NCBI GenBank assembly: GCA_048940605.1
Contig: JBHLOJ010000002.1
Location: 17,742-81,741 of the forward strand
From: Promethearchaeota archaeon
GTDB taxonomy: Archaea > Asgardarchaeota > Lokiarchaeia > Sigyniarchaeales > SOKP01
Length of the DNA: 64,000 bases
Reading direction: 5' to 3'
DNA letters: not shown here
Below: the continuation of a report on this DNA, generated by a model with database tools

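Follow-up and report, generated by a model that had tools for sequence, protein, structure and literature searches.

Extent and relatives of the giant open reading frame

Near the 3' end of the window, at ~61.7-63.7 kb, the giant surface protein of this Asgard archaeon carries two membrane-like stretches, here called segment 1 and segment 2, together with several calcium-type loops. All the peptides quoted for these features in the original prediction occur on the + strand (frame 1), displaced by a few bases from the positions given for them. After a stop codon at nt 31294 this frame stays open until the window ends, with the first ATG at 31300, and the flagged region is not the terminus of the protein. 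In all four complete loci (4/4) the homologous ORFs extend 1,140-1,470 aa past the point at which the window ends, and the closest orthologue, L001 (87% identity), implies a full length of ~12,370 aa. No exact match to the final 40 nt of the window turned up in JGI metagenomes, and L001 serves as the best proxy for the source contig. A K-rich segment of 119 aa, presumably cytoplasmic, precedes the N-terminal helices, and the ~10,280 residues that follow the N-terminal membrane domain are acidic. The conserved C-terminal module that begins in the flagged region (the end-module) is ~1,400 aa long in homologues and reaches to roughly aa 11,500 in the numbering of the window.

The sole Pfam match above the curated cutoff was Laminin_G_3, at aa 1390-1550. 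Pfam searches of the last 1,900 aa, of the first 10,000 aa and of the ends of the homologues gave nothing useful beyond this domain, and NCBIfam searches of the first 1,000 aa, of the last 900 aa and of four homologues gave nothing useful. When the end region and the whole ORF were each compared with the ORF by BLASTP, no internal repeats were found, and on this account the idea of the flagged 'tile' as a repeated unit was rejected. In a scan of 1.84 billion representative proteins (representatives at 50% identity) we found 103 relatives, and the source names, where given, were all those of Asgard lineages or of a sediment metagenome, comprising Promethearchaeota (Lokiarchaeota), Thor, Odin, Hermod and Heimdall-group/Kariarchaeaceae archaea and the Loki's Castle sediment metagenome.

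Features of the giant ORF in the window (positions in window nucleotides; aa, residues of the giant protein)
Feature	Position	Strand	Remarks
Giant ORF, open at the 3' window end	31300..64000	+	at least 10,900 aa
N-terminal polytopic membrane domain, ~15 hydrophobic helices, aa 120-617	31657..33150	+	
Sequon-enriched stalk, aa 1,501-10,068	35800..61503	+	162 N-x-S/T observed vs 102.6 expected
Sequon-poor C-terminal module, first 800 aa	61597..64000	+	conserved in homologues
Calcium-type loop 1, DPDMNREPD; consensus D-I-D-M-D-G-E-P-D	61759..61785	+	motif in 22/30; missed by the original prediction
Calcium-type loop 2, DVERDGKID	61801..61827	+	motif in 24/30; originally DVERDGKIDI, 61801-61830
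Segment 1, hydrophobic helix, aa 10,234-10,256, VAKLILIVLTLPLLTYHISKMIL	61999..62067	+	originally placed at 62005-62070
Calcium-type loop 3, DDNRDGIPD	62158..62184	+	motif in 29/32; originally DDNRDGIPDSQ, 62158-62190
Conserved sequon N-I-T, aa 10,389	62464..62472	+	kept in family
Conserved sequon N-I-S, aa 10,469, last in window	62704..62712	+	kept in family
Calcium-type loop 4, DTDQNSFYD; consensus D-S-D-x-N-G-F-Y-E	63022..63048	+	motif in 38/54; the originally quoted DTDQNSFYDT spans nt 63022-63051
Segment 2, predicted hydrophobic helix-turn-helix hairpin, aa 10,721-10,770, VFMTTT...TKFFI	63460..63609	+	originally placed at 63460-63615
Alpha/beta domain start (GHPGGYYTTVSG, VSPPN and GESDPD motifs)	63757..64000	+	pLDDT 80-93; cut by window end

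Hydrophobic stretches and calcium-type loops of the end-module

Outside the N-terminal domain, the 19-residue Hessa-scale sum falls to 6 or below at only four places in ~10,280 residues, namely at aa 6,597, at aa 8,268, in segment 1 and in segment 2, and the flagged hydrophobic stretches are genuine outliers. Segment 1 (Kyte-Doolittle, KD, 1.83; Hessa 3.5) resembles the weaker N-terminal helices and is the only one of the two that crosses the classical KD threshold in the window's own sequence. The window copy of segment 2 scores a KD of 1.17-1.36, below the usual threshold of 1.6, and contains one E and one K. Peaks of the family-mean hydrophobicity coincide with segment 2 and with two further elements downstream of it.

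For segment 1, comparison with 20 close homologues gave an uninterrupted apolar run of 13 residues, where ~18-20 or more are needed for a TM helix. This run is bounded by a conserved K (18/20) and by H/K (14/20 and 18/20); a central Pro is present in 19 of the 20 homologues and a second Pro in 10 of them. The orthologue L001 reads LLRIVLSLHKIVYHISRMIL at this place, with R/H/K/H/R there, and further homologues have E or K within the segment. The stretch is acidic or polar in P0040, P0044, P0038 and P0035, carries long acidic inserts in P0059 and P0075, is absent from P0070, P0121 and P0049, and is replaced by PASTEQA in L006, with the flanking blocks WFDIDD and PDVDYWAQKS kept throughout the homologues. 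Conserved calcium-type loops are found on both sides of segment 1, ~60-70 aa ahead of it and 30 aa beyond it, which argues that its two flanks are in one compartment. Moreover, the loss of a topology-determining span would flip everything downstream of it. The original prediction had described the stretch as looking membrane-spanning and had itself named a lack of conserved hydrophobicity among homologues as evidence to the contrary; homologues do lose the hydrophobicity or delete the stretch altogether, and by this alignment segment 1 is not a membrane span but a helix of the calcium-loop domain that varies and can be dispensed with. Clustering of its polar substitutions on a helical wheel was not significant (p = 0.11). 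The homologue P0027, in which PASTEQA likewise replaces segment 1, was considered as a complete stand-alone module lacking the segment and was rejected, because its homology continues upstream through an in-frame stop; by this alignment P0027 is a disrupted or split longer gene.

The calcium-loop-like motifs of the original prediction were borne out, as four loops conserved across homologues. Family-wide these loops fit D-x-[DN]-x-[DN]-G-x-x-[DE], with positions 1, 3, 5, 6 and 9 nearly invariant, and the comparison indicates that they are real, conserved and putatively calcium-binding. On the window sequence alone the loops are weak, and three of the four copies are degenerate at a single position. 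No strict DxDxDG motif occurs anywhere in the protein (0.35 expected), and a loose calcium-loop motif occurs 10 times (3.2 expected), with 3 of the 10 in the flagged region. In a low-confidence model (pLDDT 42.6), loop 3 is placed at the tip of a long beta-hairpin. DxDxDG calcium-binding loops, as in FG-GAP/integrin, thrombospondin type 3 and dockerin, were reportedly treated by Rigden and Galperin in 2004; the four loops of the end-module are alike in their motif, but the giant protein matches no loop-bearing Pfam family.

Segment 2 is hydrophobic in 56 of 56 homologues, down to ~30% identity, with 0-4 charges and a maximum 19-residue KD of 1.05-2.17. Its length in the family is 35-57 aa. At least 35 consecutive residues are uncharged in 21 of the 56 homologues, with uncharged runs of up to 54 residues, and most sequences carry one E and one K. 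Differences in length, of up to 22 residues, all fall in the middle of the stretch, which forms a variable tip, and the shortest forms (35-37 residues) have arms of ~14-16 residues, short for a double span. We modelled a 748-residue fragment of the homologue P0023 (82% identical) with AlphaFold2 on an alignment of 24 sequences (pLDDT 66.9, pTM 0.61), and in this model helices 49-95 and 102-140 form a hairpin, with the hydrophobic part distal and a charged, amphipathic part proximal. From a second AlphaFold2 model, of aa 10,101-10,900 with 10 sequences (pLDDT 42.6), the secondary structure alone was used. Segment 2 is accordingly modelled as the hydrophobic tip of a long helical hairpin, and its conservation makes contact with a membrane plausible. 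In the comparison of homologues by which the original prediction could have been refuted, segment 2 keeps its hydrophobicity; the window copy itself is only moderately hydrophobic.

Two more conserved hydrophobic elements follow beyond the window. The second element, TLTFWSTLISAPLVYFGSWA, is placed by AlphaFold2 at the far end of a 78-residue helix. The third, GIFMxxPSLFFGSFSFLTL, is a 19-residue uncharged run in 23/23 aligned sequences, Lys-flanked in 21/23, with a K-rich stretch (8.4 K+R vs 2.6 D+E in 40 aa) after it; a positive-inside analysis of this helix found basic residues on both sides and no charge asymmetry. The three elements are separate, are spread over ~650 aa with an alpha/beta domain between them, and all precede the junction with the polymorphic tail. 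The best-supported membrane-candidate elements are partly outside the window. The alpha/beta domain comes after segment 2 and before the next hydrophobic helix; it has invariant His, Ser, Arg, Asn and Glu. Searches of the PDB by sequence and by Foldseek gave no match to this domain, and PDB sequence profiles gave none to the module or the tail. In L019 an apparent natural split of the gene just before segment 2 is a single in-frame stop replacing a Gln/Glu codon and was not counted as evidence.

The exchangeable tail, its partner genes and the sequon map

About 100-150 aa past the third hydrophobic helix there is a junction at which the identity between close relatives drops from 80-94% to ~20-30%. 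Between L001 and P0023 the values are 84-94% for the module and 17-30% for the tail, and the same collapse was found in five other pairs. The variable tail is 600-1,100 aa long and its sharing among proteins is mosaic. Two pairs have a tail block whose identity exceeds that of the module stretch immediately ahead of it; in one of them, P0010 and P0026, this block is at 78%, above their whole module (36-68%). Between L003 and P0027 the identity is 31% in the module and 45% in the tail. A 288-residue LRR protein follows each of these two, and their LRR proteins are 72% identical. Tails of class B are paired with an LRR protein in L003, L006/L007, L008 and L009/L010, and each tail of class A (L001, L014, L013, L005, L016) is directly followed by a gene for a small Cys-rich protein, homologous among these loci. 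Furthermore, the class-B tail domain occurs in L008 and L009/L010 as stand-alone genes of 387 aa and 595 aa, each of which adjoins an LRR gene, in unrelated neighbourhoods, and P0023 is a 5'-truncated copy whose homology begins abruptly amid metabolic genes. A search for downstream operon partners conserved across all loci found none, and the co-variation is limited to the immediately adjacent gene.

At the level of sequence comparison, this behaviour of tail and neighbour is the defining behaviour of polymorphic toxin systems, and by analogy the adjacent LRR or Cys-rich protein would be a candidate immunity protein. For the gene in the window, whose own 3' end lies outside it, the status of a cassette carrier is suggested by its homologues. 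The Y / Y-x-G / R / R-x-x-E / N pattern of the GIY-YIG fold is present in the class-B tail. The Pfam matches to GIY-YIG and SegE_GIY-YIG were below threshold (E 0.017-0.07) and the assignment was not accepted on this ground, so a GIY-YIG-type toxin identity of this tail is only a lead. The remaining tails yielded no fold assignment.

The distribution of N-x-S/T sequons divides the protein in two. The stalk is enriched in them (169 observed vs 111.4 expected, p ~2e-7; the table gives the count for aa 1,501-10,068), as is a neighbouring secreted beta-helix protein (47 vs 25.3 expected). The N-terminal helices and this enrichment together suggest that the giant protein is exported and that its stalk is extracellular and glycosylated. 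At ~aa 10,070 the pattern flips sharply, and only two sequons follow in the window. From 300 aa past the HPGGYY motif to the end, the family as a whole has 2 sequons vs 118.4 expected, with the reversed motif present 116 times; the nominal p of ~3e-48 for this distal avoidance is inflated, as the homologues share descent. L001 alone has 0 sequons vs 12 expected in the distal region (p ~6e-6), and the stand-alone cassettes have 0 vs 8.8 expected. Cytoplasmic enzymes on the same contigs, taken as a control, have 26 vs 30.3 expected, and the LRR partners 10 vs 5.9. In archaea, AglB acts on sequons at the outer membrane face, and a cytoplasmic domain should therefore be sequon-neutral. An avoidance this nearly complete implies a part that the glycosylation machinery can reach and that is nonetheless kept bare, which argues against a permanently cytoplasmic tail and hence against a chain that simply loops back into the membrane of the producer. 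The avoidance fits a cargo that inserts into or crosses another membrane; it could also be caused by a need for bare binding surfaces or for correct folding.

Candidate readings and comparison with known systems

The explanation that we favour, and to which we give an even chance, is that of a polymorphic-toxin-like giant protein whose hydrophobic hairpins serve putative membrane insertion or translocation. The ~15 N-terminal helices would anchor the protein in the membrane of the producer, and ~9,500 non-repetitive, sequon-rich and presumably glycosylated residues would form the stalk. Beyond it stands the end-module, with its four calcium-type loops, its alpha/beta domain and its three hydrophobic helical elements, and then the tail of 600-1,100 residues, which relatives swap as a cassette along with the next gene, the candidate immunity protein. 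On contact with another cell, the hydrophobic hairpins may become inserted in a membrane, where they would help the glycan-free tail across. We infer that the membrane in question is that of a target cell, that the tail is delivered and is toxic, and that the neighbouring gene confers immunity. A more specific proposal is that the bare, calcium-loop-bearing far end enters the membrane of a neighbour and passes an interchangeable, sequon-free effector, possibly nuclease-like in one tail class, with the cognate LRR or Cys-rich protein protecting the producer; this we put forward tentatively, and would sooner doubt than assert. Of the two outcomes in the original prediction, the giant loop fits poorly with the sequon avoidance of the tail, and a plain intercellular tether does not account for the swapping of the tail as a cassette with the next gene.

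Some of the same evidence would suit a protein that re-anchors in its own membrane, with segment 2 and the two downstream helices acting as stop-transfer or anchor helices in the membrane of the producer, the stalk fixed at both ends, and the tail cytoplasmic, permanently or until triggered. The hydrophobicity is conserved in all homologues, hairpins of 38-57 residues would fit a double span, and the third element is a 19-residue uncharged run, Lys-flanked in 21/23 and followed by a K-rich stretch; the candidate immunity proteins, which have no visible signal peptide, could also meet a cytoplasmic tail. Such a tail should, however, be as sequon-neutral as the controls (26 vs 30.3), and it has 2 sequons vs ~118 expected. 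Moreover, the third helix is basic on both sides and gives no positive-inside signal, a fixed double span is hard to square with hairpins of 35-37 aa and with tip indels that reach 22 aa, and segment 1, which had been the strongest candidate, is refuted. We regard re-anchoring as distinctly improbable. A CdiA-like variant of the more specific proposal above, which keeps the loop, would have the hydrophobic helices first arrest export in the producer's own membrane, with the tail held inside until contact triggers its release, and would reconcile re-anchoring with the sequon data.

It may also be that no membrane is involved and that the hydrophobic stretches form the buried interior of long helical bundles within an extracellular, soluble domain. 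AlphaFold2 places them in very long helices beside amphipathic, charged ones, they are rich in small residues (Ala/Thr/Ser/Gly), as helices that pack tightly typically are, segment 2 is broken by E and K in most sequences, and its window copy stays under a KD of 1.6; segment 1, at the same time, shows that a TM-looking stretch can mislead in this giant protein. Burial alone, though a substantial rival, is unlikely, given that uncharged runs of 35-54 residues with a KD of up to 2.17 are kept down to ~30% identity, and that the three elements cluster directly upstream of the junction, with nothing comparable in the ~9,500-residue stalk. Known toxins hide hydrophobic hairpins inside soluble bundles before insertion, and burial and membrane activity are thus compatible. 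A static tether, finally, whose segments would insert into the membrane of a partner cell to hold the two cells together, with no cargo, would make use of the long anchored stalk and of the calcium-type loops near its far end, in archaea that live in close syntrophic contact. It leaves the hypervariable tail, the co-variation with the next gene, the stand-alone cassettes and the nuclease-like motifs unexplained, and we consider it very improbable indeed.

Polymorphic toxins with Imm-LRR immunity proteins and with URI (GIY-YIG-fold) toxin domains were described by Zhang, de Souza, Anantharaman, Iyer and Aravind in 2012 (PMC3482391), and polymorphic toxins are known in archaea (PMC3482391, PMC6393860). 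With the CdiA, Rhs/YD and MafB-type systems the giant protein has in common a large, here predicted, exported product with conserved trafficking or stalk parts, a sharp junction, a C-terminal domain that differs between close relatives, a next gene that co-varies with the tail, and stand-alone and truncated cassettes; its LRR-type partners and its URI/GIY-YIG-like motif have precedent there (PMC3482391). It differs from them in being anchored by ~15 N-terminal helices of its own, in its non-repetitive stalk of ~9,500 aa, in its very long variable tail (600-1,100 aa) and in its Asgard host, which has N-glycosylation and in which the cargo avoids sequons. Pfam and NCBIfam searches for trafficking, repeat, pre-toxin and releasing-peptidase domains found no TPS/FHA, RHS, PAAR, LXG, HINT or VENN domain. 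Compared with CdiA and two-partner secretion in particular, the TPS domain, the FHA repeats and the VENN/pre-toxin domain are absent, by Pfam, from the whole ORF and from its homologues.

Hydrophobic helices insert or translocate in diphtheria toxin (TH8-TH9 of the T-domain), in large clostridial toxins (the delivery domain) and in colicin pore domains, and prePAAR type VI effectors carry N-terminal TM domains that aid membrane crossing in some cases. By analogy, the giant protein may share with these an uncharged helix-turn-helix, of 35-57 residues, amid amphipathic helices and beside a part that crosses a membrane. No sequence or fold similarity to them was detected, and the giant protein differs in having three separate elements, spread across ~650 aa, with the alpha/beta domain lying among them. 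Giant genes of Asgard archaea were described by Wu et al. in 2022, as the 'Otus/Ephialtes' of aloposons and as 'many unrelated giant genes' (PMC8813620). The ORF studied here is likewise a very large, unannotated Asgard ORF (PMC8813620), but Otus and Ephialtes form a tandem pair of 3,000-6,000-aa genes and this ORF does not. No tRNA genes were found anywhere in the window, and no member of the MinD/ParA family among the 13 ORFs scanned. A full-text literature search found no description of the giant-protein family, of its hairpin-bearing end-module, of the cassette behaviour or of a sequon-free cargo.

Even the modest reading alone corrects the original prediction, in that segment 1 is no span and the region no terminus. 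The analysis also provides candidate toxin/immunity pairs, made up of a tail with its LRR partner and of a tail with its Cys-rich partner. The sequon map offers a simple readout, from sequence only, of the glycan-coated and the bare parts of archaeal surface proteins, and if the more specific proposal is true, near-total avoidance of N-x-S/T would be a general signature of archaeal proteins that cross a second membrane. Asgard archaea are the closest known relatives of eukaryotes, and how they touch, recognise and fight their neighbours is almost unknown. If true, the polymorphic-toxin-like explanation would give them a device for contact-dependent antagonism or recognition without detectable relation to the bacterial delivery machineries, and Asgard cell contact bears on models in which eukaryotes originated from intimate contact between cells.

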